A stretch of 64,000 nt of DNA from Candidatus Omnitrophota bacterium (GTDB lineage Bacteria > Omnitrophota > Gorgyraeia > Zapsychrales > Zapsychraceae): assembly GCA_050250375.1 (NCBI GenBank), contig JBFWOS010000001.1, positions 544,351-608,350 of the forward strand. Direction: 5' to 3'. The translations under genes and the position numbers were made by a program. The notes beneath the pieces are model-generated. The model did no database searches and was not told where the DNA came from. It saw only the letters and a list, made by a program, of their open reading frames with translations. Below are positions 6,824-64,000 of this stretch, piece by piece. Each line of letters begins with the position of its first letter. The first letter of the stretch is position 1.

Positions 6824-6838
6824 CCTTACTCCAAATAA

Positions 6839-6874
6839 TTAACCCCGGCCATCTTTTAAGATGGGCGGGGTTAA
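6839..6874 (-). terminator. GC-rich hairpin downstream of icd (17-bp stem, one mismatch) followed by TTATTT
   Basis: ttaaccccggccatctt-tt-aagatgggcggggttaa read on plus; sits 35 nt after icd stop and about 15 nt before lipB RBS. Confidence 0.5.
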
Positions 6875-6908
6875 TTATACCAAAACTTGTTCTTTGTTTT
6901 ATAGTAAT

Positions 6909-8170: not shown

Positions 8171-9238
8171 TTAATAATCACTCGATCGACGAAGAAGCTG
8201 CTCGAATTCTTCAAGATTCTTGACCTGCATAATAGCATCTTCGTAGGTGATGACACCTTGCTCATACAGTGTCTTCAAGGACATATCCATGGTATGCATT
8301 CCGTATTGAATGCCTGTCTGAATGGATGTGGGGATTTGTTCAACCGCTCTTTCTCGGATCAAATTTCTAATAGCAGGTGTCGCGACCAATACTTCGGACG
8401 CCATAACCCGGCCTTGACCCGATGCCCTGGGTAATAATGTTTGAGAAACAATGCCTTGCAAAGCCGCCGATAGCTGCAACCGAACTTGCTGCTGCTGATG
8501 AGCAGGAAAAACGTCAATAACCCGTTCAATCGTCTGCGCCGTATCAGGTGTGTGCAGGGTAGCCAACACAAGGTGACCTGTTTCCGCGGCCGTAAGTGCC
8601 GTCGAGATCGTCTCAAGATCACGCATTTCACCAACAATAATGACATCCGGGTCCTGACGCAAACATCTCTTTAATGCTTCAGAAAATGAATTTGTGTCAC
8701 TATAAATTTCCCGCTGTTTGATGACAGCTTTGTTGTTTCTGTGGACATACTCTATAGGATCTTCAATACAGATAATCATACAAGAGCGTTCGGAATTGAT
8801 AACATTAACCATTGAAGCTAAGGTGGTTGTTTTACCGGAACCGGTGGGACCCGTAATAAGAACCAGTCCACTCGGTCTACGCGCAAAATCCAGGACCGCC
8901 GGAGGCAAACCCAAGTCTTCAATCGACGGAATATAATGCGGGATGCGTCTTAATGCCGCTTCAACGGAACCCTTCTGGATATGAACATTAACACGAAAAC
9001 GCTCAAGCCCTTCCATAGACAGAGAAAAATCCAATTCACGCTCTTGTTCAAACTTTTCTTTTTGGGTATCCGTCAGAATACCATAAATACATTTCTTTAA
9101 CTCTTCTTTAGATAAGGCGGGCCTGTCGGTTAATGTTAATTTACCGTCCATTCGAAGTACTGGCGGGCTGTTTTCTGTTAAATGGAGATCTGATGCCTTA
9201 CGTTCAATACACAATTTTAGAAGTTCTTTTAGGTCCAA
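8171..9238 (-). CDS. pilT: Type IV pilus retraction ATPase PilT
   Basis: 355 aa; Walker A GPTGSGKTTT; PilT-specific AIRNLIRE motif. Confidence 0.9.
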   Translation of the reverse strand: MDLKELLKLCIERKASDLHLTENSPPVLRMDGKLTLTDRPALSKEELKKCIYGILTDTQKEKFEQERELDFSLSMEGLERFRVNVHIQKGSVEAALRRIPHYIPSIEDLGLPPAVLDFARRPSGLVLITGPTGSGKTTTLASMVNVINSERSCMIICIEDPIEYVHRNNKAVIKQREIYSDTNSFSEALKRCLRQDPDVIIVGEMRDLETISTALTAAETGHLVLATLHTPDTAQTIERVIDVFPAHQQQQVRLQLSAALQGIVSQTLLPRASGQGRVMASEVLVATPAIRNLIRERAVEQIPTSIQTGIQYGMHTMDMSLKTLYEQGVITYEDAIMQVKNLEEFEQLLRRSSDY

Positions 9239-40475: not shown

Positions 40476-40491
40476 ATTATACTTTCACAAA

Positions 40492-40565
<74 letters not shown>

Positions 40566-40585
40566 AGAGAATTTTGTCTCCAAAA

Positions 40586-40756
40586 CTATTTCTTAACTTC
40601 ACGATGTATTGTATGTTTACGTAGCTGCGGACAATATTTCTTGAGCTCTATCCGTTCCGGATGCTTTTTTTTATCTTTTTTGGTCGTATAATTAATGTGT
40701 CCCGATTCTACACACTTTAAAAGGATTGTTTCACGATTGTTCTTTTTTTTCGCCAT
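40586..40756 (-). CDS. rpmG: 50S ribosomal protein L33
   Basis: Not in ORF track (56 aa). Manual translation [56 protein letters not shown], aligns with E. coli L33. Confidence 0.85.
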
Positions 40757-40804
40757 GATGGTAACCTATACCTAAAATTTTTTTATAAATTTACCCGTTA
40801 AAAA

Positions 40805-40877
<73 letters not shown>

Positions 40878-50363: not shown

Positions 50364-51734
50364 CTAAGACGCAAATTTTACACGGCCGCGGCCATCGCAA
50401 TATGGACACTTCTTAAATGAAATGGACTCTATTGTCTTCCCTGTCCTGGCCCTGGTCATTTCGACTAACCCTAACGGGGATATCTTATAAACCTCCGTTT
50501 TTGCGTGGTCATGCGCCAAGGCTTTCTGCAAGGCATCAATAAGCTTTCGCTTATGATCTTCCTTGACCATGTCTATAAAATCGATAACAATAATCCCTCC
50601 CAAATCCCTCAGGCGTAACTGCCTGGCGATTTCCGGGATTACTTCCATGTTGACCATAAATGCGGCTTCTCCTGGTGAGGCTTTAGTCTTAAACTTACCG
50701 CTGTTTACATCAACAACAATTAACCCTTCGGTCGGTTCAATAACAATATATGCTCCGGATTTGACATAGACATTCGTATCATATATTTTATTGAGTTCTT
50801 TTGATACATTCTTAGCGTCAAATAGAGGAACCGTTCCTTTATAGCATTGAATTTTATCGACCATTTCGCGTCCGATTAAGGTCTGGACGAACTTTCTTAT
50901 CCGTTGATAATGATCCTCATCATCAATAATCAGCTTATCCACATTTTCCGTTAGATAATCCCGCACAATCTTCCAGGTAAGCTCCCCTTCCTCATAAATG
51001 AGTGCGGGCGCTTTCCCCTCTTCAGATTTCTTGAAAATCTTCTGCCAAATACTATATAAAAACTTGGCATCACGAATGAGTTCACGTTTCCCCTGCTTTT
51101 TCGAAGCGGTCCGAATAATAAAACCACCTGATTTGGCAAAACCAAACCCCTTGATTACTTCACGTAGGCGTTGGCGTTCTTCACTTTCATCAATCTTCTT
51201 GGAGACACCGGTTTGATAATCAAATGGCATGTAGACCACAAAACGGCCGGGTAAGGTTATGTGGGTTGTTAGCCGGGCGCCCTTTTCACCAAAGGGTTCT
51301 TTGACAACCTGGACCAGGATCTCCTGACCAACCTTCAAGGGGAGTTCCTTTGATTTTTGATGAAATCTAGCCGCAGGCTTGATTGTTTTTACCGTCTGAA
51401 TGGACTTTTTCGGACGACGGAGGATTTTTTCAATCAAATTACGTGGTTCTAATTCTTGACCTTCATCAATACGCGGGCTGACAACATCCGTCAGATACAA
51501 AAAGCCGTTCCGCTCCTGACCAATGTTAACAAATGCTGCGTTTATCGATGGAAGTATTGACTCTACTTTACCTTTATAAATATTACCCAGGAGTGATTGA
51601 TACCGGTCGACTTCAATATGAAAGTCGTCGACATGGCCGTTCTCTATAATTGCAACTAGTCGCTCGCCCCTTTGTGTCTGAATAAGTATTTCTCGCGACA
51701 ACGTTTGACCTGAAACCCTTTCTTCATGAAACAC
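50364..51734 (-). CDS. rng: Ribonuclease G (RNase E/G family)
   Basis: 456 aa; S1 domain, DNase-I-like core, Zn-link CPYCDGRG. Confidence 0.9.
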   Translation of the reverse strand: MFHEERVSGQTLSREILIQTQRGERLVAIIENGHVDDFHIEVDRYQSLLGNIYKGKVESILPSINAAFVNIGQERNGFLYLTDVVSPRIDEGQELEPRNLIEKILRRPKKSIQTVKTIKPAARFHQKSKELPLKVGQEILVQVVKEPFGEKGARLTTHITLPGRFVVYMPFDYQTGVSKKIDESEERQRLREVIKGFGFAKSGGFIIRTASKKQGKRELIRDAKFLYSIWQKIFKKSEEGKAPALIYEEGELTWKIVRDYLTENVDKLIIDDEDHYQRIRKFVQTLIGREMVDKIQCYKGTVPLFDAKNVSKELNKIYDTNVYVKSGAYIVIEPTEGLIVVDVNSGKFKTKASPGEAAFMVNMEVIPEIARQLRLRDLGGIIVIDFIDMVKEDHKRKLIDALQKALAHDHAKTEVYKISPLGLVEMTRARTGKTIESISFKKCPYCDGRGRVKFAS

Positions 51735-51812: not shown

Positions 51813-53171
51813 TTATTTTGAAGCTATATCAGGAGTAATAATATGAGGTGTAATAAATATGACTAAATCTGTTTTTGTGACACTGGACTCAGTTTTTGTA
51901 AATACCAACCCTAAAATTGGGACATCCCCTAGAATAGGCGTCTTTTTCTTTGTTTCAGTCGTCTGATCTGTAATAAGACCGGCGATGACCAACGTATCCC
52001 CGTCCTTGACCATTACCCGTGTTTTCGTTGATTCATTACTCAACCGCGGCAAGGTCGTGTTCTCAACGGTAACAAAATCAAGAATCGCCGTAATCTTTGG
52101 CAAGACATCCAATGTTATATATCCTGCATTATTCACATGCGGGGTAACATCAAATATGATACCAATATCTTTGTATTCCCAACCGGATACCTGAAGTCTA
52201 GCCTGCTCTTCATTATAAGTGTACGTAGGAATTGGATATTGGCTTCCCACCACAATTTGAGCGGCTTGATTGTCCAAGGTCACAATTCTCGGATTCTGTA
52301 ATATATCAGTATCGCTGCGAGATTTCAAGAGTTCAAATACAGCTTGAACTTGGCTGAAATTTAACGTCCCATATGTGAATTCTGTGTTAGCATTACCTTC
52401 CGTTGTGTCTGGGCCAGGATATGGATCGGTGGCAAATCGGCTTGCTGATCCATTGCTGTCAAACGGCCAGGTAATCGGTCTTTGTGAACCCGATGCCGTG
52501 GCTTGTGTTAACCAATCAACACCCAAATTCTCCGTATCTGTGAAGTTTGTCTCCACAATTTTCGCCTCTATCAACACCTGTGGTGTTGTCCGATCAAGCT
52601 CTTTAATGACTCCAGACATTAATTCAATCTGTTGCGGGGTATCTGTAATAATAATAGTATTAGTCCGTTCATCAAAATTGATACTTCCGCGGTCAGATTT
52701 CATTTTTTCAATGGATTCAATAATTTCAGAAGCTCTACCGAAGTTTAATATATGGGTTTTTGTTTCCAAAGGAATCTGCTCAGACAGGACCATCTGATCT
52801 TCCCTTCGCTGTTTTAGATTTTCGACAGTCGTAACAACAACAATATTCCCTTTTTGTTCGTATGCATACCCATACGTTTGAACAATTACATCCAACGCCT
52901 GTTTCCAGGGCACTTCGTTCAATTGGATCGTTACCACCCCCTGAACTTCCGGGCTGGCTACGATGTTGACCCCGCTTTTGAATGACAGGATCTTAAAAAC
53001 ATTGCGGATATCAGCATCACGAAAATCGAAGCTCACATTTCCGCTTTCTGACATGGAAACAGAATCTGCTGCAATATTCTGCGTCTTACCATCCACACTC
53101 TTGGTTTGTGCGTACCCAATAGTGGTCAGAAACAGGACGGCCGCCACGGTTAATGTTAATTTTCTGAACAT
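51813..53171 (-). CDS. pilQ: Type IV pilus secretin PilQ
   Basis: 452 aa; signal peptide; N-terminal secretin_N-like domains; C-terminal secretin motif LVIAGLI...TPILGDVPILGLVF. Confidence 0.9.
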   Translation of the reverse strand: MFRKLTLTVAAVLFLTTIGYAQTKSVDGKTQNIAADSVSMSESGNVSFDFRDADIRNVFKILSFKSGVNIVASPEVQGVVTIQLNEVPWKQALDVIVQTYGYAYEQKGNIVVVTTVENLKQRREDQMVLSEQIPLETKTHILNFGRASEIIESIEKMKSDRGSINFDERTNTIIITDTPQQIELMSGVIKELDRTTPQVLIEAKIVETNFTDTENLGVDWLTQATASGSQRPITWPFDSNGSASRFATDPYPGPDTTEGNANTEFTYGTLNFSQVQAVFELLKSRSDTDILQNPRIVTLDNQAAQIVVGSQYPIPTYTYNEEQARLQVSGWEYKDIGIIFDVTPHVNNAGYITLDVLPKITAILDFVTVENTTLPRLSNESTKTRVMVKDGDTLVIAGLITDQTTETKKKTPILGDVPILGLVFTKTESSVTKTDLVIFITPHIITPDIASK

Positions 53172-53172
53172 T

Positions 53173-53577
53173 TTATTCCTCCTTTTTAAGCTTTAGCTTG
53201 AATACCTGCTGGTCTTTTTGTAATAATACCCAATCATCCGTAATTTCCGTTATGATAAATTGGCCTATTTTGTCATCTACTTTGACGATCTTTCCGTTTA
53301 TCATCGCAATATTCCCGGCCGCTCCGGACATAATTCCCTGCAATGACAAATCTGAAACCATTAAATCTGCTTCATAATTATTGATGGTTCCGCTTGAACT
53401 GATGAGTTTCCAGAATGGATCCCTCCGTCCGTTATCGTTATATTTATACTCTGCGGACTCTTCAGCCGCATCAGAGATAACACACGCGCCCAATATGCTT
53501 ACGATTAATACAGCCGCCAATTTGTGTTGAATCTTGATTCGATGCATATTAATTCGCCTTTTCATAAACAATGGCAC
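53173..53577 (-). CDS. pilP: Pilus assembly lipoprotein PilP
   Basis: Lipobox LGAC; conserved RDPF motif; start may be a later ATG. Confidence 0.7.
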   Translation of the reverse strand: MPLFMKRRINMHRIKIQHKLAAVLIVSILGACVISDAAEESAEYKYNDNGRRDPFWKLISSSGTINNYEADLMVSDLSLQGIMSGAAGNIAMINGKIVKVDDKIGQFIITEITDDWVLLQKDQQVFKLKLKKEE

Positions 53578-54148
53578 CCAATGTTAATTTAATCGAATGT
53601 TCTTTCGTATTAGTGGATGATGCAATTGTCAACTTCGTCACTTTCAAAAAGATCTCTCCACGTTCAATAACGTCGATGAACCGTCCCAGATTGTGGTAAC
53701 CTGCCCTGGCCTCAATCTCAATCGGAAGCGCGTAATAAACCCTGTCATTATTCTCGAGTACGATTTCCGAATCAATAACGTTTGGCATAATTTGATTTAT
53801 CTTCACTCCATTGTCGTTTGCCAACCTGGATACATGCTCAAGAATTAATGGCACTTCTTCTCTAGGCTCAACCTTTTCGTTTTCCTTTTTAATAACGCCT
53901 TCAAGACGAGCAACCTCCTTCTGATATTGATCCAATTTCATTATTTCTCCCTTAGCTTTATCAATATCAACGGCTAATATCTTTAATTCAGGATTAATTT
54001 TCGTTAACGTGGCCAATTGCGGACGCATGAGAACAAAATAATCCAGAAGAAACACCAGCAACAACACTCCACCGAAAATATAATACAGCGTCTTGTCATC
54101 CAGTTTCTCAAATTTTTCGTTAAACTTTTCTTTTAAATCATTTTTCAT
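53549..54148 (-). CDS. pilO: Pilus assembly protein PilO
   Basis: Start trimmed to MKNDLKEK...; single TM then coiled-coil and PilO fold. Confidence 0.75.
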   Translation of the reverse strand: MKNDLKEKFNEKFEKLDDKTLYYIFGGVLLLVFLLDYFVLMRPQLATLTKINPELKILAVDIDKAKGEIMKLDQYQKEVARLEGVIKKENEKVEPREEVPLILEHVSRLANDNGVKINQIMPNVIDSEIVLENNDRVYYALPIEIEARAGYHNLGRFIDVIERGEIFLKVTKLTIASSTNTKEHSIKLTLGAIVYEKAN

Positions 54149-54743
54149 TTTTAATCTTACCCTTGATCTTTGTCGTAATAAGAAAATCCGCCACATCCAT
54201 TTTATTCTCTGTCCGACGCTGGATAGAACCCAACTCCAATTCCGTCAGGTGCTCAAGAAATTGGGGTTGTTTCTTTAAATTAGATGTAAGTTTATGAACA
54301 TTGATCAGTTCGTCTTGATGATTGGAAATGGCGCTGCCTTCGATAAACAACATTTCTTCTGTCAAAGCAATTTTAGTCAACCACACCCCTCTAGGCAAAT
54401 CATCACTAATAATATTAAGCTTCGGGGCCCAGAGAATGACTTTTCCGCCTGTAACTTCGGTGAGGGCTTTGCTTTTACTATTTATTGCACGCATATCGTT
54501 AACGATTTTATCCACTTGTTGTTTCTTGGGTAAAATTAACGCCCATTCCTGTTTCAATTCTTTATGTTTATTTAATTTCGAAATATTTGTCACCAGTAAT
54601 ACAATATGAACAATAATCAACAACGCAAACAACCCTCCGCACGAACCGATTACGACTTCAATGGGCATATCTATTCCACCGGGAAGAAATTTCTTCTTCT
54701 TTCTTCTCCTCAATTCAGGTGAGATTAAGTTAATTTCGATCAT
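54138..54743 (-). CDS. pilN: Pilus assembly protein PilN
   Basis: Begins MIEINLISPELRR, a PilN INLLP-type motif; single TM. Confidence 0.8.
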   Translation of the reverse strand: MIEINLISPELRRRKKKKFLPGGIDMPIEVVIGSCGGLFALLIIVHIVLLVTNISKLNKHKELKQEWALILPKKQQVDKIVNDMRAINSKSKALTEVTGGKVILWAPKLNIISDDLPRGVWLTKIALTEEMLFIEGSAISNHQDELINVHKLTSNLKKQPQFLEHLTELELGSIQRRTENKMDVADFLITTKIKGKIKNEK

Positions 54744-55782
54744 ATTGATAAAGTGCCAAACCTAAGGCGACACCAAGCCTGTTGGATTTCTTATTCAGCT
54801 CTTCTTTTGAAACTTTTTCCGAAACTACCACCATTTCAAACGGATTCCAGCGTTTGATTTCTATGTCCAGCTGTTTGGCAATGCTGTCTTCCAAACCGAT
54901 CATCATGGCTGCCCCGCCGGTCAAAATCAATTCGGATATTTCGTTACTATTCTCTGTCGAGAAATAATCCAACGACAACCTCAGCTCTTGAATCAAATTT
55001 GAAATAGCCGATTCGCACGCGTTCTGAATTTCCTTGAGGCGTTCCCCCGGATTACATTTAAGTTGTTCGGCTTCCTCATAGTCAACCGCCAATGCGTTGG
55101 CTATCCTTTTAGTCAAATCACGTCCTCCGACATAAATGTCTCGATTAAATTGTGGAGTTTGCCCGACCATCACTGTAAGGTTGCTGACAGAGTCTCCCAT
55201 ATCCAATATGGCAACAACTTTACCGTCCGACGATGAATCCAAGACGCTCCTGGCATTGGCTATAGCGATCGGATTTATTCCAATAAAATCCGTTTCAAAA
55301 CCCAGTCCGGTGATCATTTTCAAACGCATCTCAACCAATTCTTTTTTTGCGGCCGCTGCCATAACTTTCATCTGCTTTGACTTGCCCAGGGGATCCAAGA
55401 TATAACAATCCGTATAAATCTGATCTTGTGTAAAAGGAAAATATTTGTCCGCTTCAATCGAGAATGAATTTCTTAAATCATCAAGAGACATGCGCGGCAT
55501 ATCTATAAAACGGATCAAGGTTCCCTTACCGTACACGGAGGTATAAATATTCTCAACCGGCATGCTCACCTGATTTAAAATTGTCTTCACAGTGGTTGTG
55601 TAATCCCCACCAACAATGGGTTGAACCGCCCAATTAAGGATTTTATAAGAATCCCCTTCTCGGTAAACTTCAACCATTTTGCAGGAATTAATTCCTATAT
55701 CTAATCCGACTGAGGAACCCTCTTTTTTCTTAGGAATAAAACGTTTGATAAATTTGAAATAATTTTGTAATAATTTGTTCAT
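54730..55782 (-). CDS. pilM: Pilus assembly protein PilM (actin-like ATPase fold)
   Basis: 350 aa; GLDIGINSCKMVEV start typical of PilM/FtsA-like. Confidence 0.85.
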   Translation of the reverse strand: MNKLLQNYFKFIKRFIPKKKEGSSVGLDIGINSCKMVEVYREGDSYKILNWAVQPIVGGDYTTTVKTILNQVSMPVENIYTSVYGKGTLIRFIDMPRMSLDDLRNSFSIEADKYFPFTQDQIYTDCYILDPLGKSKQMKVMAAAAKKELVEMRLKMITGLGFETDFIGINPIAIANARSVLDSSSDGKVVAILDMGDSVSNLTVMVGQTPQFNRDIYVGGRDLTKRIANALAVDYEEAEQLKCNPGERLKEIQNACESAISNLIQELRLSLDYFSTENSNEISELILTGGAAMMIGLEDSIAKQLDIEIKRWNPFEMVVVSEKVSKEELNKKSNRLGVALGLALYQYDRN

Positions 55783-55919
55783 AGGTATAGCCAGCTTTAT
55801 CGGATTTTTTCACAAACTCATTCAGCCGTAGATGCGAAAATCAAATAGGTGAAATACAGAGGAGTTTAAGTAAGTCTAAGCATTGCAATAAATTATAATT
55901 ATTCAACTTAACATATATA

Positions 55920-56243
55920 CTATTGTACTAAATTAACATCATCAAGAGGAATTTCATAAATTATTTTTTGCCGTTTTTTCTTGGGCGTTGCGCTCAATTC
56001 ATTATCCGGTTCGGACATCAATTCGCTGGTATCCAAGAAAGTTGACTGGTCATTGGTTTGGGAACTGGTACGTAGCGCGTTATTCAAACGCATTTTCTGG
56101 GTTGTAGGATTGGCTGGCGTAGTGATCTTCTTTGTCTCTTCAATCTCGTATGATACCCAACTATTGGCCATGAATATTGCACATAATATGACGACTACAA
56201 CGATCAAAAGAGTATTTGACATATTGTTAGTTCTTGCGGCCAT
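55920..56243 (-). CDS. Small single-TM hypothetical protein, translationally coupled (TAATG) to the PilX-N protein
   Basis: 107 aa; N-terminal TM LLIVVVVILCAIFMA, then polar unstructured region. Confidence 0.45.
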   Translation of the reverse strand: MAARTNNMSNTLLIVVVVILCAIFMANSWVSYEIEETKKITTPANPTTQKMRLNNALRTSSQTNDQSTFLDTSELMSEPDNELSATPKKKRQKIIYEIPLDDVNLVQ

Positions 56244-57946
56244 TATGAATCTCCTTCTTGCCAGATCATTTTGTCGGTGATGTCATTGGTGAAGGCAATA
56301 AAAGTATTTAACGATGGAAAATATGGCGGGGCATTTCCCACAGCCATTCGTTCATCATACACAAAATTACGTCCGTATCCTGCTGTTTGTGTGCCCGTTG
56401 CACCATTAAACTGGCCGAAAGCCCCATAAAAGTCAGAAATGACACCTCCCAGCAATGTTGCTACTCCGCGCCCGCCCACTCCCGAGTCATTATAATTATC
56501 GACCTGGAATATACCGGCCTTAGCAAGAATCGTTCCGTGAACATTTACATCATTCGGCGCCGAAGTGCCGATACGCACGTTTCCGTTCCAGGAAACCAAC
56601 CCTAACAGGTTCCCCGCGTTCGAAGGAACACTGGGAGCAACATAACCGGCTTGTCCCGGCGTACCTACGGCAGAATTATAATTTTGATACTGAAGATGAT
56701 TGCTGATAACAATATCGTTGTTACTGGATATCGTTACAGCGGTATCACCATGAACTGTACCGCTCAAATTATTGATATCCCCGTTTACATAAATAACGGT
56801 CCCAACCCCATCCACTCCGTCCGGAACCCCGCCATATACAGTCGTTCCGACACTGACATGTTCGACCGTTGTCTGATTGGTTGACCTGTTGACTGTAATT
56901 ATTTTCTGGGAACCTCCCTGAACAATATTGTATACGGCATTATTGCTCCCGTCGACGGATAAGGTGACATTGCTGTTTCCTTCAACGTAGATGCCTCCGG
57001 TTAGACTCGTCCCATTATTGGAAATATAAATTCCGTTCCCCGAGATACTGGCACTTCCCAGCGCCTGGTCAACAAGATCCTGTTGTTGACTGGCTGATGA
57101 TAAAGAAATCGCACTTGCGCTTCGGTTAAATCCCGAATTAAACGTCGGGACATCTATACTTCCGTTGGATGCGGCATCCAGAAGAATCGGGGAACCACCG
57201 TTATAAAAACGAGCCAGTTGCTCCACCTGATCAACTCTTCCGTCAAAAATACCGCTGGGATTTAACGCGATATTGTACCTTCCGTTGGTATGCAGCGGCC
57301 CGGCAAAATTCGTCTTATCGGTAAACCAGACGTTGGTTCCGTTAGGCAAAGTTTGTTGATTGGTAAAAAGGGCATATTTGGCAAAATTATCCCGTTGGAC
57401 TCGCACAGTAAAGTCTCCCGACAAAACAACATCTTTATTTGTACCTTGGGATGTTCCGGTCGAAACAATCCGATAGTTATAAGGGAAATCCCAGGAATCT
57501 GCCGTGACTATTATCGGATTCGTTTTTTCGGAAATTGAAACATCATATTGATAAGTCCCGTTGCCTAAAGCTGAGGATTGTATGTATCTGGCATTTATCC
57601 CATTTAATGTTAAGGCCGGCACCCCTCCGTTCTTGACATAATTGATCAAGAAACCGATTCCATCGTTATTGGCGACATAGGTTGTCGTCTGAGCAACCAG
57701 GGTTGATGGATTCGTTGCGTTAACTGTATTAAGCATATAACTATTGATTAATGTATCCAACCCGTCTAAAGCGGCCTTCGATCCACCTTCAGCGATATAA
57801 AATGACTTAGCCAAATCCAATTCTCTTTGAGCAACCCTGCTTTCATAAATTGTCCGAAGAATAAAGACACTACTCAATCCCAACAGAACGACAACAACAA
57901 ACAACGCAATGATAAGTGCCACCCCTCTTTCATTATTTATTTTCAT
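56243..57946 (-). CDS. PilX N-terminal domain protein with long N/G/S/T-rich beta-helix-like region (putative pilus tip/adhesin)
   Basis: 567 aa; N-terminus MKINNERGVALIIALFVVVVLLGL resembles PilX_N; repetitive xGxNxVxS segments. Confidence 0.6.
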   Translation of the reverse strand: MKINNERGVALIIALFVVVVLLGLSSVFILRTIYESRVAQRELDLAKSFYIAEGGSKAALDGLDTLINSYMLNTVNATNPSTLVAQTTTYVANNDGIGFLINYVKNGGVPALTLNGINARYIQSSALGNGTYQYDVSISEKTNPIIVTADSWDFPYNYRIVSTGTSQGTNKDVVLSGDFTVRVQRDNFAKYALFTNQQTLPNGTNVWFTDKTNFAGPLHTNGRYNIALNPSGIFDGRVDQVEQLARFYNGGSPILLDAASNGSIDVPTFNSGFNRSASAISLSSASQQQDLVDQALGSASISGNGIYISNNGTSLTGGIYVEGNSNVTLSVDGSNNAVYNIVQGGSQKIITVNRSTNQTTVEHVSVGTTVYGGVPDGVDGVGTVIYVNGDINNLSGTVHGDTAVTISSNNDIVISNHLQYQNYNSAVGTPGQAGYVAPSVPSNAGNLLGLVSWNGNVRIGTSAPNDVNVHGTILAKAGIFQVDNYNDSGVGGRGVATLLGGVISDFYGAFGQFNGATGTQTAGYGRNFVYDERMAVGNAPPYFPSLNTFIAFTNDITDKMIWQEGDS

Positions 57947-57951
57947 CGGAT

Positions 57952-58632
57952 TTACCCCCTATTCCTTAGATACACAACCATACTATTCGTCATTGTCATA
58001 GTTCTATTCTTCATCGAAGTTCCCAACGCGGTTACTGTGATTGTCACCTCATTCTGGTCCACACTCATAGCCGCCTGAAAATCGGAAATCTTTTGAGCGA
58101 ATATATCCGTCCGCACCAGGGCATTCGCCGCGTTGCGGACCCGCCGCTCGAGTTGATTATTATTATTTATGGCATATTCAAGGTAACTGTATTCCACTGT
58201 CGAGCAATCATCATCGGCATCCATACAGGTTGAATCCGTGCACCCCCAAGTCAATGGAGCTCCCCAATTCGCCACATCCCCATTGTTATCAATAATTGTT
58301 TGTCCTGCTTCACAAATAACCGGCATAAAAAATTGAATTACATCCGAACTATTAACCCCGGCATTATCATTAATTGTCACCTGCATCACTCCTGCGCCGT
58401 TAGACCCCGACTCTCTCAACTCTTTAGAAATTTTTTCCAGCGTTAACCTTAAATTTTCCTGCAACTCAATCTGTAAGGCGGTGTTGGCCCAGCTGTTTTG
58501 ACCTGCTGCCATAGACATATACACTCCACCCATCATGGCTGTAAGGATCGCAACCGCAACCATAAGCTCCACAAGGCTGAATCCCCTGTTGACTTTAATC
58601 TTCAAATTTATTAATTTTTTATTATTGGTCAT
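57952..58632 (-). CDS. Type IV minor pilin (prepilin-type N-terminal cleavage/methylation domain)
   Basis: 226 aa; NRG|FSLVELMVAVAIL class III signal, E at +5. Confidence 0.8.
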   Translation of the reverse strand: MTNNKKLINLKIKVNRGFSLVELMVAVAILTAMMGGVYMSMAAGQNSWANTALQIELQENLRLTLEKISKELRESGSNGAGVMQVTINDNAGVNSSDVIQFFMPVICEAGQTIIDNNGDVANWGAPLTWGCTDSTCMDADDDCSTVEYSYLEYAINNNNQLERRVRNAANALVRTDIFAQKISDFQAAMSVDQNEVTITVTALGTSMKNRTMTMTNSMVVYLRNRG

Positions 58633-59074
58633 ATCTATAAGTCACCAACTGAACAGTTGAGTCGATTATGCCGTTGCCATTTGTATCCTCGCCGGCATCA
58701 AGACTGCCATCCAAATCGGTGTCTTCTCCAATAAGCAATCCATTTTTCTGTCTCCAACAAAACGAAACAGTTATCTGGACAAGATCAGGGTTTGTATTAT
58801 TAACATAAGAAACACCGGCACCGTTAATAGCCGGTTCAAAAAAGGAAACATTGTTGAAATTCGCCATCAATTGAGTAAAATCTGAATTACTGATTTGTTC
58901 CATACGGGTTTTCGCGGCTCTAGTAGCCATTGATTTGTTCCGGGACATTTCATTCAACTCCAGACATTTTGTGTAGGTTACCAATATACCAACGAAGGCG
59001 AGTATCATGACAACGGCCGCTACCATTACTTCTGCCAAAGCAAATCCCTCATTTCCTTTAAGTTTCAATTTCAT
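58622..59074 (-). CDS. Type IV minor pilin with EF-hand-like Ca-binding loops
   Basis: 150 aa; NEG|FALAEVMVAAVV; DTDLDGSLDAGE and DTNGNGIIDS loops. Confidence 0.8.
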   Translation of the reverse strand: MKLKLKGNEGFALAEVMVAAVVMILAFVGILVTYTKCLELNEMSRNKSMATRAAKTRMEQISNSDFTQLMANFNNVSFFEPAINGAGVSYVNNTNPDLVQITVSFCWRQKNGLLIGEDTDLDGSLDAGEDTNGNGIIDSTVQLVTYRYDQ

Positions 59075-59096
59075 GGTTTTGAATTTCCCATACCGG

Positions 59097-59139
59097 CAAA
59101 GAAAAGGGGGACTTAATATGCATATCTGAAGCCCCCCCC
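59097..59139 (-). terminator. Intrinsic terminator after pilA
   Basis: Minus strand reads GGGGGGGCUU-(loop with AUAUGCAUAU)-AAGUCCCCC then UUUUCUUU. Confidence 0.65.
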
Positions 59140-59167
59140 TTCCTTACTGGTAATTGAATAACGAAAA

Positions 59168-59566
59168 CTATGGTGTTAAAATACCGCCTGTTGTGACAGT
59201 AAAAACAGTCGTACCTGAAGTACCTAGTGATACAGGCGTAGCTGTAAAGGAATATGACCCAGCTCCCCATGCGCAACCGAAGGTAAATCCGCTACGAGCA
59301 ACACCATCACAATAATCTTCCTGTAAATACGCCGGGACGGCTCCAGTTAAAGAAGACATGTCCAATGGATAATTTCCATTGTTGGCAGTCGCGAATGTTT
59401 CTGATGACGTTGACATTGTACGTAATGTACTTTGTGCCAAGGCATCGTTAGCTGAGATTTTGGCTCTCAGCAAATTCGGAATCGCGATAGCGGCCAGCAG
59501 AGCGATGATCGCGACAACGATCATAATTTCTACCAGCGTAAAACCTTTATTGTTTATCCTTTTCAT
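59168..59566 (-). CDS. pilA: Type IVa major pilin
   Basis: 132 aa; MKRINNKG|FTLVEIMIVVAIIALLAAIAIPNLLRAKISAN; AAGGAGG RBS. Confidence 0.9.
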   Translation of the reverse strand: MKRINNKGFTLVEIMIVVAIIALLAAIAIPNLLRAKISANDALAQSTLRTMSTSSETFATANNGNYPLDMSSLTGAVPAYLQEDYCDGVARSGFTFGCAWGAGSYSFTATPVSLGTSGTTVFTVTTGGILTP

Positions 59567-59704
59567 TTTCCTTCCTCCTTTGGATTTAGAGCCAATAGCT
59601 ACTTATTCAACCAGCGGAGAAAAAAGGAATAATGACTTTTGTTCATTTTGCCAGTTAAGTTTTCGCAACTTATTGACTCAGTTTAAATTAAGTATTTTTA
59701 TTAA

Positions 59705-59733
59705 ATTCTACATACCCTTTTAAAAGGCGTCAA
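59705..59733 (-). promoter_or_regulatory. Sigma70-type promoter TTGACG-17-TAGAAT upstream of pilA
   Basis: Read on minus strand; lies between the upstream terminator and pilA, leader ~130 nt. Confidence 0.45.
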
Positions 59734-59762
59734 TCAAATATCTACTTATTTTCTCAGAAAGA

Positions 59763-59798
59763 ACAAAAAAAACCTATTTTCCATCCGGAAAATAGGTT
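59763..59798 (-). terminator. Perfect 12-bp hairpin (AACCUAUUUUCC/GGAAAAUAGGUU) plus U-run; likely expression platform of the upstream riboswitch-like element
   Basis: Plus strand reads aaaaaaaacctattttccatccggaaaataggtt; U-tract is on the minus strand. Confidence 0.75.
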
Positions 59799-59799
59799 A

Positions 59800-59923
59800 T
59801 TGACATCTTTAAAGATGCCTGGGTCGTGGTAACTGGCTACCCTTGCTTACGCGGAGGGCCCTATAGCTTTGTGCCCCAACCTTACGGATGGTTTACCTTT
59901 GTCACATCAACAAACTGTACTAC
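59800..59923 (-). promoter_or_regulatory. Candidate c-di-GMP-I (GEMM) riboswitch aptamer in pilA leader
   Basis: Minus-strand RNA ...AAAGGUAAACCAUCCGUAAGGUUGGGGCACAAAGCUAUAGGGCCCUCCGCGUAAGCAAGGGUAGCCAGUUACCACGACCC... Shares GGYAAACCAUyCG-GNRA-...GGGrCrCAAAGC...GGUAGC...GUUACC blocks with V. cholerae Vc2 aptamer as recalled from memory. Confidence 0.5.
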
Positions 59924-59929
59924 AATCGA

Positions 59930-59958
59930 AGTATAACATCTGACTATCAACCTGTCAA
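59930..59958 (-). promoter_or_regulatory. Sigma70 promoter TTGACA-17-TATACT driving the riboswitch-like RNA
   Basis: Consensus -35 and near-consensus -10 with 17-nt spacer, 11 nt after stop of the coiled-coil gene. Confidence 0.6.
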
Positions 59959-59968
59959 ATAAGCAAGA

Positions 59969-60919
59969 CTACTGCCCCTGAGCCGATTGATCCAGCTTCT
60001 TAATATCTTCTTGGGTCCTATTAAACTTTTCTTTAAGAATACGGTTTTCTTTTTCAATAAAATATAAGTTTTCCATCAATCGTTCTATTTCCTCTTCACT
60101 GATGTCGAAGGCGGCATTTTTTTCTTTAATTTTATGATCGGCCTGGCGTAACACTTTTTCTAATGTATTTCCTTCTGTTCGCAACTCCGAGATCTCCGCA
60201 TGAATCTCATCTAATAATTTGGAATTTCGGCTCTCAAAGCTGTCTAAGTCGCCCAATACTTCTTTTTCGCCAGCTTCAGCCTTCTTATAATGATCATCCA
60301 GCAAGGCCAATTTCTGTTTCAACAAATTATTCTTTTCTTTTAGACTCTCATATCTTTCAAAAGACTTAGCATGATCTTTCTCAAAACCCTGGCTCCTGCG
60401 CTCCAACTCCTTAACGTTCGTCTGAAGAAGGTCTAATTTTCTTTCTAACGATTCATTCTCCGTTGCATGAAAAATGCTCCTCGATTCCTGATCAATTAAT
60501 TGATTCATATGCTGAATTTCATCGGTAACTATGGCTATTTCCTTTAATAACTTTTCCTCATGTTGCGATTTTGCGGGGGTCCTGCTTTTTAAGCTAAGTC
60601 CACCAGCACCCTCAACCCTTAACGGGGCTTCTTCTTTCGCCCGCAATGATGTTTGACCTTCAACCGATTTTGTTCCACGCCCATGTCCGTCTATTTGTTT
60701 TTGCAGTGAATCAATTTTCATCTCCAGAATCTTTATTTCCGAAAGGAGCCATCGATTTCTTTCGGTCATTTCTTTTGAACTCTGCTTTAGCCCGTTCAGA
60801 CTAATGGATACGGATTCCTGTGAAGATACATGCCAGTCCGTTTGGCCCAAAACTGTTTTAGGGACAATGCTGACACCTGCCAGAAAAAAAACAACCACTT
60901 TTGGTTTAATTCTCAACAT
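59969..60919 (-). CDS. Secreted coiled-coil protein of unknown function within the pilus locus
   Basis: 316 aa; signal peptide; long heptad-rich E/K/L/Q region; start 2 nt after pilC stop. Confidence 0.6.
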   Translation of the reverse strand: MLRIKPKVVVFFLAGVSIVPKTVLGQTDWHVSSQESVSISLNGLKQSSKEMTERNRWLLSEIKILEMKIDSLQKQIDGHGRGTKSVEGQTSLRAKEEAPLRVEGAGGLSLKSRTPAKSQHEEKLLKEIAIVTDEIQHMNQLIDQESRSIFHATENESLERKLDLLQTNVKELERRSQGFEKDHAKSFERYESLKEKNNLLKQKLALLDDHYKKAEAGEKEVLGDLDSFESRNSKLLDEIHAEISELRTEGNTLEKVLRQADHKIKEKNAAFDISEEEIERLMENLYFIEKENRILKEKFNRTQEDIKKLDQSAQGQ

Positions 60920-60923
60920 GCGA

Positions 60924-62132
60924 TTAAATAATCTGCGTTATGTTCATGATTGGCATGAAAAGGGCAATGACGATAAAACCAATAACAATACCCAGAACAC
61001 CTATAATAAGCGGCTCGATTATGCTGGTCAACCCTTCCACAGCCGCATCTACCTGGTCATCATAGAACTCGGATATTTTAAGTAACATTTTCTCCAACTG
61101 ACCGGATTTTTCACCGATCGCGATCATCCGCGTAACCATCGGCGGAAAGACTTTACTCTTGCTTAATGGCGGGGCAATACTTTCCCCTCCGCGCACATTA
61201 TTCTTGACCTCATCAACGACGAGTTCAAGCACCCTGTTCCCAATCGTCTTACCGACAATATCCAAAGATTCAAGGATCGGAACACCGCTTTGAATTAATG
61301 TCGCCAAAGTGCGGCTAAACCGGCTGATCGCAACCTTACGCAGCAAGTCTCCAAATATCGGCAGCTTTAACACAGCACCATCAATGACCACCGCGCCTTT
61401 GTTTGTTTTATGCCATTGCTGCAACGTGACAACCAATATAAAGAGTGCCCCCACAATCCATAATAAATATTTCTGCAAACCTTCACTGATCGCCATTAAA
61501 AGCTGGGTCATGGGAGGAAGTTCAGAATTCAGAGATGCATAAATTCCGGCAAAGGTTGGAACTACCTTAACAAGCAACAAAATGGTTATAAGGACAGCCA
61601 TGGTTACAACGACCGCCGGATAAATCAAAGCAGCCTTAACCTTGCGCCTTAATTTAAGTGTCTTTTCCATGTAGAACGAGACACGGTCAAGCACCTGCGC
61701 CAAAACACCACCGGTTTCCCCGACTCTGACCATATTAACGAATAACGTATCAAAAACCTGCGGATGCTTCGAGAACGATACAGACAAGCTGCTTCCATGC
61801 GAGATATCTTCAGCAATATTACCCAATACTTTTTTAAACATTGGATGAGTCACTTGTTCTTGTAATGCATCCAGCCCCTGAACGATTGGGATGCCGGCAT
61901 CAACCATAGTTGCTAACTGGCGGGAAAATATTACGATTTCATCAGGCTTAACCTTCTTACTCGTAAAAGAACTTTTTTTCTTACTAACCGTATCTTTGAT
62001 TTCATTAATAGATATAATGACAAGTTTTCGTTTGCGCAACTCCTCAATCACGGCAACTTTATTATCCGCTGCAATCTTGCCGGTTACGCTTTTTGATTCC
62101 TGATTTTTTGCTACATATTTGAAGGTGGCCAT
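60924..62132 (-). CDS. pilC: Type IV pilus platform protein PilC (GspF family)
   Basis: 402 aa; two T2SSF repeats, three TMs. Confidence 0.9.
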   Translation of the reverse strand: MATFKYVAKNQESKSVTGKIAADNKVAVIEELRKRKLVIISINEIKDTVSKKKSSFTSKKVKPDEIVIFSRQLATMVDAGIPIVQGLDALQEQVTHPMFKKVLGNIAEDISHGSSLSVSFSKHPQVFDTLFVNMVRVGETGGVLAQVLDRVSFYMEKTLKLRRKVKAALIYPAVVVTMAVLITILLLVKVVPTFAGIYASLNSELPPMTQLLMAISEGLQKYLLWIVGALFILVVTLQQWHKTNKGAVVIDGAVLKLPIFGDLLRKVAISRFSRTLATLIQSGVPILESLDIVGKTIGNRVLELVVDEVKNNVRGGESIAPPLSKSKVFPPMVTRMIAIGEKSGQLEKMLLKISEFYDDQVDAAVEGLTSIIEPLIIGVLGIVIGFIVIALFMPIMNITQII

Positions 62133-62194
62133 ATCACTTACCTTAATCTTGAGGAATTACTTTGTGGCATGCAGGTTGGCAAACAACTAGTTAA

Positions 62195-62222
62195 AGTATA
62201 ATTCCTGAAATCTTTTTAGCAA
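62195..62222 (-). promoter_or_regulatory. Sigma70-type promoter TTGCTA-16-TATACT upstream of pilC
   Basis: In the 240-nt AT-rich pilB-pilC spacer, minus strand. Confidence 0.45.
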
Positions 62223-62371
62223 CATCTAATCTGATAACTTTGACGAAATTATATTTATATTCAAAATATATTATCAATATAAATACATATTAATGCCTAT
62301 TTGCGTTGAACCAAACCACTTTTCTTATGTATTTTAACATTAAATCTTACCTTTAAAAGAATGAAAGTGAA

Positions 62372-64000
62372 TTAATCACTCGCCGTTATACGCAGGACTT
62401 CGTCAAGCGTCGTTTGTCCGTTTAAACACTTATCCATGGCATCCTCAAACAAGGTGCGCATTTCCTTGTTCTTTCTTGCGAATTCCTTGATAACATCGGA
62501 AGATTCGCCCTTAAGAAGAAGATTGCGGACATCATCATCAACTTCCAACAGCTCTGTGATTCCCATTCTTCCCTGATAGCCCAGGCGGCGGCATTTGTCA
62601 CACCCCTTACCACTATAAAATTTTGTATCGGCCTTAACCGGGTATTTCAGGTCATCCAACAAAGCCTTTGGAAGAGCGATTTCCTCGCGGCAAGATTGGC
62701 AAATTCTTCGGCACAGTCTTTGGGCGCTGATTAAGAAAATACTAGAGGCCACCAGAAAAGGCTCAACATCCATGTCAATCAGACGGGTCAAAGCACTTGC
62801 GGAATCATTCGTGTGTAAAGTAGAAAAAACCAACTGTCCGGTTAAAGAGGCTTTTATGGCGATATCCGCCGTTTCTCCATCACGAATTTCCCCCACCATG
62901 ACAACGTCGGGACTTTGACGTAAAATCGATCTCAATCCTTCGGCAAAAGTCAGCCCGATCTCAGGCCTCGCCTGAATTTGAGTTAACCCCTCGACTAAAT
63001 ACTCCACTGGATCCTCAACCGTAATGACATTTTTTTCCACCGTGTTTAATTTGCTGACCAATGAATACAACGTGGTTGATTTTCCGCTACCGGTCGGTCC
63101 TGTCACAAGCATCATCCCAAAGGGTTTTACGGTCGCCTCTTCCAATATTGTGAGCGCCTTATCATTAAATCCCAAGCCCGCCAACCCAACCGAAAGGCTT
63201 CCCTTATCCAGTATCCGCATAACAATCTTTTCCCCGAACGTTGTCGGAAGCATGGAGACCCGGAAATCGACTTCTTTGTTGGCAATCTTCAACTTAAAAC
63301 GTCCGTCTTGGGGCACATGACTTAATGTAATATCAAGACGCGCCATAATTTTGATTCTCACGATAACCGCATTTTGATTTTCTTTGGGGATTTCCAAAAT
63401 GTTGGTGAGAATCCCGTCTATCCGGTATCGAACCTTCATGCCGTTTGTCTTAGGCTCGATATGAATATCCGAGGCTCTTTGTTTGATGGCTTCTTTCACA
63501 ATCAGATTGACCATACGGATGATGGGGGCCTTCTCACTTTCATCCACGGAACTATCCAGGTCTTCCTCCCCATCACTTTCGGAAACAATCTCAAAATCTT
63601 CAACATCAATATCTTTACTAATCTCCGTGACACTATTTTCCGCTTTCAAACCATAGAAGCTATCAATGACTTTCAGTATTTCGTCATTTGTACTCATGAC
63701 GATCTCAATTTCTTTACCGGTTATATTTTTAAGGTCATCAATAATAAAAACATTTAGCGGGTCAGAAACCGCTATCGTCAATGTTTCATCCAGTAATGAC
63801 AACGGGATAATCTGGTACTGCCGTGCAATGCGTTCGGGAATGGTTTCCTGCAAAGCAGGATCAAACTTATATTTGGATAAATTAATAAACGGGATGTTCA
63901 ATTCGCGGACTAACAAGACCAGCAAATCTTTTTCCTTAATGAGCCCTTTCTCAACAATTGCTTTCTCTAAAGTAATGCCTTTACGTTTCTGAAAGACCAT
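62372..64000 (-). CDS. pilB: Type IV pilus assembly ATPase PilB (GspE family); N-terminus at or beyond window edge
   Basis: GSPII_E N-domain; Walker A GPTGSGKSTT; tetracysteine Zn motif; ATG occupies the last 3 nt of the window. Confidence 0.9.
   Translation of the reverse strand: MVFQKRKGITLEKAIVEKGLIKEKDLLVLLVRELNIPFINLSKYKFDPALQETIPERIARQYQIIPLSLLDETLTIAVSDPLNVFIIDDLKNITGKEIEIVMSTNDEILKVIDSFYGLKAENSVTEISKDIDVEDFEIVSESDGEEDLDSSVDESEKAPIIRMVNLIVKEAIKQRASDIHIEPKTNGMKVRYRIDGILTNILEIPKENQNAVIVRIKIMARLDITLSHVPQDGRFKLKIANKEVDFRVSMLPTTFGEKIVMRILDKGSLSVGLAGLGFNDKALTILEEATVKPFGMMLVTGPTGSGKSTTLYSLVSKLNTVEKNVITVEDPVEYLVEGLTQIQARPEIGLTFAEGLRSILRQSPDVVMVGEIRDGETADIAIKASLTGQLVFSTLHTNDSASALTRLIDMDVEPFLVASSIFLISAQRLCRRICQSCREEIALPKALLDDLKYPVKADTKFYSGKGCDKCRRLGYQGRMGITELLEVDDDVRNLLLKGESSDVIKEFARKNKEMRTLFEDAMDKCLNGQTTLDEVLRITASD

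Follow-up and report, generated by a model that had tools for sequence, protein, structure and literature searches.

The gene cluster analyzed here, which lies at one end of a 64,000-nucleotide stretch of DNA (the window) from an uncultured Omnitrophota bacterium, raises the question of what primes and caps a pilus when its locus does not code for PilY1. No ORF of the locus matches the PilY1 C-terminal beta-propeller (Pfam Neisseria_PilC family), and the PilY1 family was not found among the window ORFs tested. The locus is a type IVa pilus gene cluster; Omnitrophota commonly have such pili, and V. archaeovorus expresses them (PMC10066038). All its genes are on the minus strand, in the order pilB, pilC, a coiled-coil ORF, a c-di-GMP-I riboswitch, pilA, two minor pilins with Glu5, a 567-aa ORF, a 107-aa ORF, pilMNO, a PilP-like lipoprotein and pilQ. 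The best explanation of the whole, to which we assign a probability of about 0.7, is a type IVa pilus whose tip is made by a cassette of three pilin-like proteins, with a ComZ-like solenoid pilin as cap and a c-di-GMP riboswitch in control.

The minor-pilin cassette and its solenoid pilin

The first two cassette genes code for minor pilins of 150 aa (58622..59074) and 226 aa (57952..58632), in whose families the G/F...E5 motif is invariant (27/27 and 35/35, respectively), in agreement with an earlier note on this DNA that had counted two. The 150-aa pilin, which we infer to be of the GspI/PilV class, has a D/N-rich C-terminus that looks calcium-binding, and the 226-aa pilin is of the GspJ/PilW class and matches GspJ-class pilins at the fold level. 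The third gene (56243..57946) encodes the 567-aa protein, a member of the DUF4900 family (Pfam, 3.3e-15), and the fourth (55920..56243) the small transmembrane protein also seen earlier, a 107-aa bitopic membrane protein whose helix ends in N-x-W and whose C-terminal tail (IYExPLxDVxLVQ) is conserved. A GspH/FimU-like adaptor pilin was not seen in the cassette, and the minor-pilin set is, as had been claimed, a reduced one of three pilin-like proteins.

The 567-aa protein had been called a PilX-N protein, a label that does not hold: it scores 12.5 bits with Pfam PilX_N (PF14341), below the cut-off of 25.5 (E 0.15), and this domain is carried by only 5 of its 120 best database matches. That it is a pilus component is, on the other hand, supported. 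Its AlphaFold model (pLDDT 82.6) consists of a pilin domain and a triangular, ice-binding-like beta-solenoid, rather than a propeller, followed by two strands (549-553 and 561-564) in a region of low confidence (pLDDT 46-68). The only significant Foldseek matches in the PDB are three chains of ComZ (E 1e-8 to 2.5e-7), the next being ice-binding solenoids and GspK; structure comparison shows that the pilin domain resembles GspK/XcpX and the whole fold ComZ. The global TM-score to ComZ is about 0.3, identity in the structural alignments is 11-14%, and profile searches linked the sequence neither to ComZ nor to any other solved structure; the relation therefore rests on domain-level fold similarity. 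In the family, the cleavage glycine is invariant and glutamate was found at position +5 in none of 40 sequences (I, L, F, V, M, A, Y, T or G being found instead), so that sequence and model together indicate a predicted tip-class pilin of the GspK/PilX class, never with Glu5. Family identity is 55-95% among the best 120 database matches and 38-80% across 80 loci, a conservation unusually high for an adhesin. Invariant polar residues are many (for example H219, D178, R275, R526 and D531), and conservation is strongest in residues 181-240 and 481-567, at either end of the solenoid, and lower in the middle.

With a GspJ-class 226-aa pilin and a ComZ/GspK-like 567-aa protein, the set resembles a GspI/J/K-type core to which a ComZ-like solenoid cap has been added. 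It shares with GspI-GspJ-GspK (PDB 3CI0) and with Pseudomonas PilV-PilW-PilX the gene order small, medium and large pilin, with Glu5 in the first two and missing from the third; its 226-aa member has the GspJ-class fold and the pilin domain of its largest member matches GspK and XcpX, although the insert of GspK is alpha-helical and that of the Omnitrophota protein a solenoid, and although Pseudomonas also needs FimU, PilE and PilY1. The likeness extends to pilA2-pilA3-comZ of Thermus: ComZ has the same combination of a GspK-like pilin domain and a triangular solenoid like that of ice-binding proteins, the Thermus comZ locus also lacks a PilY1 gene, and in both systems standard pilin detection misses the large pilin (PilFind for ComZ, the Pfam PilX_N cut-off here). 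The 567-aa gene directly follows that of a GspJ-class pilin, as comZ presumably does in Thermus HB8, where by locus-tag order we take TTHA1219 to be the gene directly upstream of comZ. To call the set non-canonical, as the earlier note did, is thus an overstatement. Differences from Thermus are the fourth small membrane gene, a sequence similarity too low to be detected, and the riboswitch that many Omnitrophota genomes place before their own cassettes.

The structure of ComZ from Thermus thermophilus (PDB 6QVI; Salleh et al. 2019) was itself reported to have GspK and an ice-binding protein as structural partners (PMC6561018), the same pair as that of the 567-aa model, which supports its identification as a ComZ-like tip pilin. 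ComZ binds DNA, through two lysines (PMC6561018), suggesting that the solenoid pilin could be a DNA receptor on the tip of a competence pilus, the function proposed for ComZ, and neither plug nor adhesin. ComZ is its closest fold and the sole significant match, and a ligand that does not vary, as DNA would be, could account for how well the family is conserved throughout the phylum. This function is nevertheless unlikely, as the Omnitrophota family is acidic (median pI 4.4, which argues weakly against DNA binding) and lysine-poor (1.9%), the two lysines of ComZ are unmappable at such identity, competence genes are absent from the window and the locus, and Omnitrophota pili have been discussed as organelles for epibiont attachment (PMC10066038).

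The cassette was compared in 80 Omnitrophota loci obtained by a pattern scan, each from a different assembly, as judged by accession prefixes. The order 150-aa pilin, 226-aa pilin, DUF4900 protein is kept in all 80 wherever it is not cut off, and the small membrane gene comes next in nearly all of them; a synteny comparison of this kind had been suggested in the earlier note. About half of these cassettes are inside pil clusters, between pilA and pilM, while the others stand alone, and some genomes have two or three. This distribution suggests that alternative tip sets are used in the phylum, and it would also fit an accessory cassette, with a canonical PilY1 and FimU-PilVWXE set priming the main pilus from elsewhere in the genome. 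We consider this quite improbable, because in the pil-embedded loci it is the cassette that holds the pilA-pilM interval, the 80 loci all come from different assemblies, and no mention of PilY1 in Omnitrophota was found in the published accounts consulted. Moreover, in the pil-embedded loci with a listed gene order, the cassette is followed directly by the small membrane gene and pilM, leaving no room there for a PilY1-sized gene.

The machine around the cassette

The assembly ATPase is of the PilB type (pilB, 62372..64000; T2SSE 2.3e-129 and MshEN 5.5e-21) and is accompanied by the platform protein PilC (60924..62132; two T2SSF domains, 1e-66). The window ends inside pilB, leaving its first 27 codons outside; the full-length protein has 569 aa on contig JBFXCX010000003.1 (GCA_050181705.1), where a PilB-like ATPase paralogue (588 aa) and an MshEN-only protein (149 aa) are encoded upstream of it. 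The locus therefore extends beyond the window and cannot be called complete, as it had been. After pilC comes a 316-aa coiled-coil protein (59969..60919) with a signal-peptide-like N-terminus, consistent with the secreted protein described before; its position is conserved, and the counterparts at this position in 18 related loci all have, by eye, a hydrophobic N-terminus of this kind.

On the other side of the cassette, pilM (54730..55782; PilM_2 2.6e-45), pilN (54138..54743) and pilO (53549..54196) exceed their own Pfam cut-offs. The next gene (53173..53577) codes for a lipoprotein (lipobox LGAC) named PilP-like from its position, as profile searches gave no PilP family match, only weak ones to CdsD_C/T2SSB. 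The secretin gene pilQ (51813..53171) encodes N0/STN, one N1 and the secretin domain, without an AMIN domain. The pilMNOPQ assignment stands, with PilP placed by position, and the gene inventory from pilB-pilC to pilQ that had been drawn up earlier is largely right, the points to correct being the PilX-N label and the missing PilP family match. The retraction ATPase gene pilT (8171..9238, minus strand; TIGR01420 470.5 vs a cut-off of 319.1) adjoins icd (6909-8117), 42.6 kb from the pilus locus, where it had been placed at about 43 kb. No Peptidase_A24 match (PilD) and no PilR/S family was found among the window ORFs tested, in agreement with the absence of PilY1, pilD and pilRS noted previously; other parts of the genome may contain genes for PilD, PilY1 and additional minor pilins. 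The profile checks proposed in the earlier note gave N_methyl on pilA (7.7e-9) but neither PilX_N above threshold nor PilY1.

The I/J/K-type appearance of the minor pilins, a sub-threshold GspG match of the pilin and a short secretin could suggest a type II secretion-like pseudopilus system instead of a retractile pilus, and the truncated PilB does score slightly higher on the GspE model (596.6) than on the PilB model TIGR02538 (588.8; cut-off 675.65), although it is below the cut-off in both. Such a system is, however, very improbable, given that PilM_2, PilN and PilO are found in place of GspL, GspM and GspC, that the secretin passes the cut-off of the PilQ model (TIGR02515; 294.3 vs 284.35) and fails that of GspD (258.9 vs 351.35), that the window encodes a PilT/PilU-family ATPase, and that a cultured relative expresses type IVa pili (PMC10066038). 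The machine is of the PilMNOPQ type with PilT, and in this the type IVa locus differs from type II secretion.

Expression of pilA and c-di-GMP

The major pilin gene, pilA (59168..59566), encodes 132 aa with a short leader of 8 residues (MKRINNKG) followed by FTLVE, which gives the G/F...E5 motif. It is preceded by a regulatory RNA, as the earlier reading had it: a c-di-GMP-I aptamer (59824..59907, minus strand) that scores 58 bits with RF01051 against a gathering score of 35 (58.9 vs 59 with the related GGC-variant Rfam model). In 45 related loci, 48 matches were found, always on the gene strand and directly upstream of a pilus gene, which is pilA in 35 cases and the first gene of the cassette in 13, with none elsewhere in 1.4 Mb. 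Covariation supports the structure: at eight base pairs both sides vary, and 95% of the cells are paired. The aptamer is thus a predicted c-di-GMP-I riboswitch with a conserved structure. An intrinsic terminator (59763..59798; 12-bp stem at 59798-59771 and a T-run) is its expression platform, and a terminator is found 3' of the aptamer in 41/41 instances examined.

Two promoter-like sites flank these elements on the same strand. P1 (TTGACA-N17-TATACT, 59930..59958; 11/12 matches) is ahead of the riboswitch, and a TATACT-like -10 element is present upstream of the aptamer in 25/30 related pilA leaders. P2 (TTGACG-N17-TAGAAT, 59705..59733) lies between the terminator and pilA; TTGAC followed by A or G is found past the terminator in 22/30 leaders, compared with a background of 6%. 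After pilA there is a strong U-tailed hairpin (59092..59154, minus strand; -36.3 kcal/mol, z -5.2), likely a leaky terminator ahead of the minor pilin genes, and pilA, enclosed between it and the riboswitch terminator, fits the monocistronic gene that had been described.

In Clostridioides difficile, a class II c-di-GMP riboswitch controls the pilin gene pilA1. Both systems have, before a type IV pilin gene, a leader with a terminator that senses c-di-GMP (in Omnitrophota by prediction), although the Omnitrophota aptamer is of class I, its leader has two promoter-like sites, and throughout the phylum the riboswitch is also found ahead of minor-pilin cassettes that stand alone.

A model for the pilus tip

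PilB, PilC, PilMNO, the PilP-like lipoprotein and PilQ would assemble PilA fibres, which PilT, encoded elsewhere in the window, would retract. Expression of pilA would be tied to c-di-GMP through the aptamer, with its own promoter and terminator, P2 being an additional, riboswitch-independent promoter-like site; in stand-alone cassettes the same riboswitch would act ahead of the first gene. The hairpin after pilA would probably pass few transcripts into the minor pilin genes. The MshEN domains of PilB, of its paralogue (PilB2) and of the free-standing protein may, judging from the domain family, provide a second, post-translational c-di-GMP input.

Assembly would be primed by the conserved cassette, the solenoid pilin entering first and capping the fibre, where it would plug the tip and probably also mediate adhesion, as PilY1 does in proteobacteria; the 107-aa protein may help in assembly or docking. 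That the solenoid is instead a tip-mounted enzyme, such as a polysaccharide or cell-wall lyase for host or prey envelopes, is hardly credible in spite of the beta-solenoids typical of tailspikes and lyases (PMC6561018), the many invariant polar residues and the predatory lifestyles proposed for the phylum (PMC10066038), since the solenoids nearest to it, of the ice-binding or adhesin type, are not enzymes, profile searches found no catalytic family, and conservation peaks away from the middle of the solenoid.

For the solenoid pilin as cap there is a precedent. The substitution for PilY1 that the earlier note put forward for the 567-aa protein has already been proposed for cyanobacteria, whose PilX carries a bulky ice-binding-like beta-solenoid proposed to replace the PilY1 plug where PilY1 is absent (bioRxiv 10.64898/2026.02.12.705559). 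By its description, that system has a similar PilV/PilW/PilX-type core priming set, although it belongs to another phylum, and functional assays on minor-pilin deletion mutants are reported for it (bioRxiv 10.64898/2026.02.12.705559). It is plausible that the 567-aa solenoid pilin replaces PilY1 in Omnitrophota, and the locus is an informative new example built of known kinds of parts rather than a new kind of machine.

Gene content and type of the pilus system

The pilus locus is encoded on the minus strand throughout and is described along transcription, from 64000 downwards. It starts with pilB (62372-64000; T2SSE 2.3e-129, MshEN 5.5e-21) and pilC (60924-62132; T2SSF 1e-66), followed by a 316-aa coiled-coil ORF with a hydrophobic, signal-peptide-like N-terminus (59969-60919), an intergenic region of about 400 nt that holds the riboswitch leader (59567-59968) and pilA (59168-59566), an N_methyl protein with the leader MKRINNKG|FTLVE. 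A strong hairpin with a U-tail (59092-59154; -36.3 kcal/mol, z -5.2) separates pilA from two pilin-like ORFs of Glu5 families, of 150 aa (58622-59074) and 226 aa (57952-58632; N_methyl), a 567-aa DUF4900 ORF (56243-57946) and a 107-aa membrane ORF (55920-56243). These are followed by pilM, pilN and pilO (53549-55782), a 134-aa lipoprotein at the PilP position that has only weak CdsD_C/T2SSB matches (53173-53577), the secretin (51813-53171) and RNase G (50364-51734). Matches to miRNA families at 59089-59154 correspond to the hairpin after pilA, not to an RNA gene.

The secretin scores above the NCBIfam PilQ cut-off (294.3 vs 284.35) and below the GspD cut-off, and an ORF at 8171-9238, adjoining the isocitrate dehydrogenase gene, matches the PilT/PilU model (470.5 vs a cut-off of 319.1). 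Together with the gene inventory, this identifies the locus as a type IVa pilus system. Type IVa pili have been reported as near-universal in Omnitrophota (PMC10066038). The gene inventory of the earlier note was essentially right according to Pfam and NCBIfam assignments, including a pilT beside icd, away from the locus, and the lack of pilD, pilRS and PilY1, since no match to a prepilin peptidase, PilR/S or PilY1 was found in the remaining scanned ORFs of the window, which are housekeeping genes. Its description of the locus as complete does not hold, because the end of the window cuts it. Genes identical to those of this locus are found on contig JBFXCX010000003.1 (GCA_050181705.1), where the full PilB has 569 aa and follows (locus L082, 5833-9761) a 588-aa PilB-like ATPase, PilB2, and a 149-aa MshEN-only protein, both downstream of mreBCD-mrdA-rodA, an arrangement that is shared by close relatives.

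A coiled-coil protein with a signal-peptide-like N-terminus, 300-575 aa long and without a known family, is always encoded after pilC (59969-60919 in the window; for example, 6129-7856 in locus L007 and 6119-7807 in L062); a TolC/OEP-like identity was rejected, as the only matches were generic coiled-coil ones below threshold. A 235-aa ORF (4356-5063), which is not a prepilin peptidase, has no Pfam match at E <= 1e-5; its C-terminus looks TonB-like by eye. The region 10453-40282 encodes ribosomal proteins L17, L3 and L4, RNA polymerase alpha and methionine aminopeptidase, and the sizes and order of the flanking ORFs point to rpoB-rpoC and ribosomal-protein operons. tRNA-Trp and tRNA-Thr are located at 40491-40877, and nothing in this ordinary chromosomal setting indicates a mobile element.

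The DUF4900 protein and its conserved cassette

The 567-aa protein had been described in the earlier note as a PilX-N protein, with the suggestion that it substitutes for PilY1. The family name is not borne out, as the Pfam PilX_N match is not significant (E 0.15, 12.5 bits vs a cut-off of 25.5) and the protein belongs instead to DUF4900 (3.3e-15), although it was a reasonable lead, because 5 of its best 120 database matches carry PF14341. These 120 matches share 55-95% identity, nearly all over >=96% of the length, and the homologues are annotated as Candidatus Omnitrophota/Omnitrophica; an exhaustive HMMER search recovered 823 cluster representatives at E <= 0.001. The AlphaFold model (pLDDT 82.6, pTM 0.71) comprises a long helix at the N-terminus, a sheet of six strands and a beta-solenoid of about 340 residues. 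Against the PDB, Foldseek returned three chains of ComZ, the solenoid pilin of Thermus, as the only significant matches (E 1e-8 to 2.5e-7). Salleh et al. gave GspK and an ice-binding protein as structural relatives of ComZ itself (PMC6561018), and the 567-aa protein shares both. A search of the DUF4900 family profile against all PDB sequences gave no meaningful match, so the relation to ComZ is at the fold level only. The cleavage Gly is invariant in the family and Glu at +5 is found in none of 40 sequences, the signature of capping pilins of the GspK/PilX class. DUF4900 can be assigned in structure and, by proposal, in function as a ComZ-like tip pilin of this class. The family is acidic and poor in lysine, a mild argument against a DNA-receptor role like that of ComZ, and its conservation peaks at the C-terminal strand and at either end of the solenoid.

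Both partner pilins have an invariant Glu5, counted from the cleavage Gly (27/27 in the 150-aa family and 35/35 in the 226-aa family), and profile and Pfam searches with both families gave matches limited to the N-terminal pilin helix. Weak NCBIfam matches to 'Verru_Chthon cassette' and GspH/ComGE models span the N-terminal helix only and were discounted. Because of its size, Glu5 and gene order, the 150-aa pilin may be placed in the GspI/PilV class. Considering the Glu5 pattern, the fold matches of the 567-aa protein and the gene order, the minor pilins look like the core priming trimer of the I/J/K (V/W/X) type, capped by a ComZ-like protein. The C-terminal third of the 150-aa pilin contains a conserved D/N/G-rich repeat, GEDxNLNGxLDAGEDxNGNGxLDS, reminiscent of loops that bind calcium, an ion for which GspK, GspG and PilY1 have known sites.

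Scanning a single genome for each species yielded 80 loci, almost all from Omnitrophota, and the synteny check on related genomes that had been proposed showed that the order of the 150-aa, 226-aa and DUF4900 genes is kept in all of them as far as the contig extends. A gene of roughly 80-130 aa nearly always follows the DUF4900 gene, and the 107-aa protein has positional counterparts in most loci. This small bitopic protein matches no Pfam or NCBIfam family; 34 aligned examples show a single membrane helix with N-x-W at its end, then a variable linker and, at the C-terminus, the conserved tail K..IYExPLxDVILVQ. In the 80 loci, conservation of the solenoid protein is roughly on a par with that of the core machine proteins and exceeds that of the two pilins encoded with it. 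The four-gene cassette lies between pilA and pilM in about half of the loci, including the window, stands alone in the others and is in tandem copies in a few genomes. Tandem or partial duplications are present in L012 (5058-11683, where each copy has its own riboswitch), L034 and L073 (12171-14534). The taxonomic labels of many contigs with this Omnitrophota-type cassette (L006, L008, L011 and others) are probably loose or mis-binned: many read 'uncultured Planctomycetales', and that of L006 reads Lysobacterales.

Probable c-di-GMP control of pilA and the cassette

The regulatory RNA mentioned in the earlier note proved to be a c-di-GMP-I aptamer at 59825-59907 (RF01051, 58 bits vs 35; 58.9 vs 59 with the GGC-variant model). 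In the pilA leader it is preceded by a near-consensus promoter-like site, P1 (TTGACA-N17-TATACT, 59930-59958), and followed by a terminator (12-bp with a T-run, 59771-59798) and a second promoter-like site, P2 (TTGACG-N17-TAGAAT, 59705-59733), about 140 nt 5' of pilA; the P2 spacer in related pilA leaders is often GGAAAGGAGG. A covariance model derived from five instances was run over the 80 loci (1.4 Mb) and found 48 further matches in 45 loci, all on the gene strand: 35 lie immediately 5' of pilA and 13 immediately 5' of the first cassette gene, with none elsewhere. At eight base pairs both partners vary, and an intrinsic terminator follows the aptamer in all 41 instances examined. TTGAC[AG] is present after the terminator in 22/30 pilA leaders vs 0/11 cassette leaders (background 6%), so pilA can be read as having one riboswitch-gated promoter and one independent promoter, while stand-alone cassettes would depend on riboswitch read-through alone.

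Aptamer positions 27-37 are often the best pairing partner of the terminator 5' arm, and an anti-terminator was considered. This idea was dropped because the aptamer, a linker hairpin and the terminator are independent elements in the minimum-free-energy fold, and cognate terminators pair with the aptamer no better than unrelated ones taken from these loci (Mann-Whitney p 0.33). Pyrimidines make up 81% of the CCUAUUCUUC-like 5' arms of riboswitch terminators (window 59771-59798; L001-L077), vs 46% in other terminators of the loci.

MshEN is a known c-di-GMP receptor family. Its domains are found on PilB, PilB2 and the free-standing 149-aa protein, which suggests a possible second level of c-di-GMP control; the tandem LGxxL..G motif is intact in the 149-aa protein alone.

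Proposed mechanism and significance

Most likely, the three pilins would assemble into a priming complex whose apex is the solenoid pilin, acting as a plug and probably as an adhesin. The separate pilA transcription unit would provide bulk PilA, and limited read-through past the hairpin after pilA would yield the scarce tip proteins. That the 567-aa protein takes the place of PilY1 is plausible and not new in kind, since a solenoid PilX instead of PilY1, with ComZ as precedent, was already proposed for cyanobacteria (bioRxiv 10.64898/2026.02.12.705559). A full-text literature search brought up no paper that addresses what DUF4900 does or reports a c-di-GMP riboswitch in Omnitrophota. Useful additions are the link between DUF4900 and ComZ, the conserved cassette of four genes and its association, or that of pilA, with the riboswitch in 45/80 loci.

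A more far-reaching but unlikely reading is a phylum-wide, c-di-GMP-gated tip module of four genes, for GspI-like and GspJ-like pilins, the DUF4900 solenoid pilin and the small membrane protein, whose C-terminus would carry a docking motif. Here the unusually conserved solenoid would be the organelle that lets ultra-small, probably host-dependent cells recognise some conserved trait of host envelopes or attack it, the small protein would be a new assembly factor and the riboswitch would couple tip production to the decision on attachment or attack.

With this locus, the proposal that a solenoid PilX stands in for PilY1 reaches a third, uncultured phylum after Thermus and cyanobacteria, and one c-di-GMP riboswitch is associated with pilA or the tip cassette in over half of the sampled Omnitrophota loci. 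In a lineage considered to live on hosts, the solenoid pilin, the small membrane protein and the riboswitch are concrete candidates for host attachment and its regulation.
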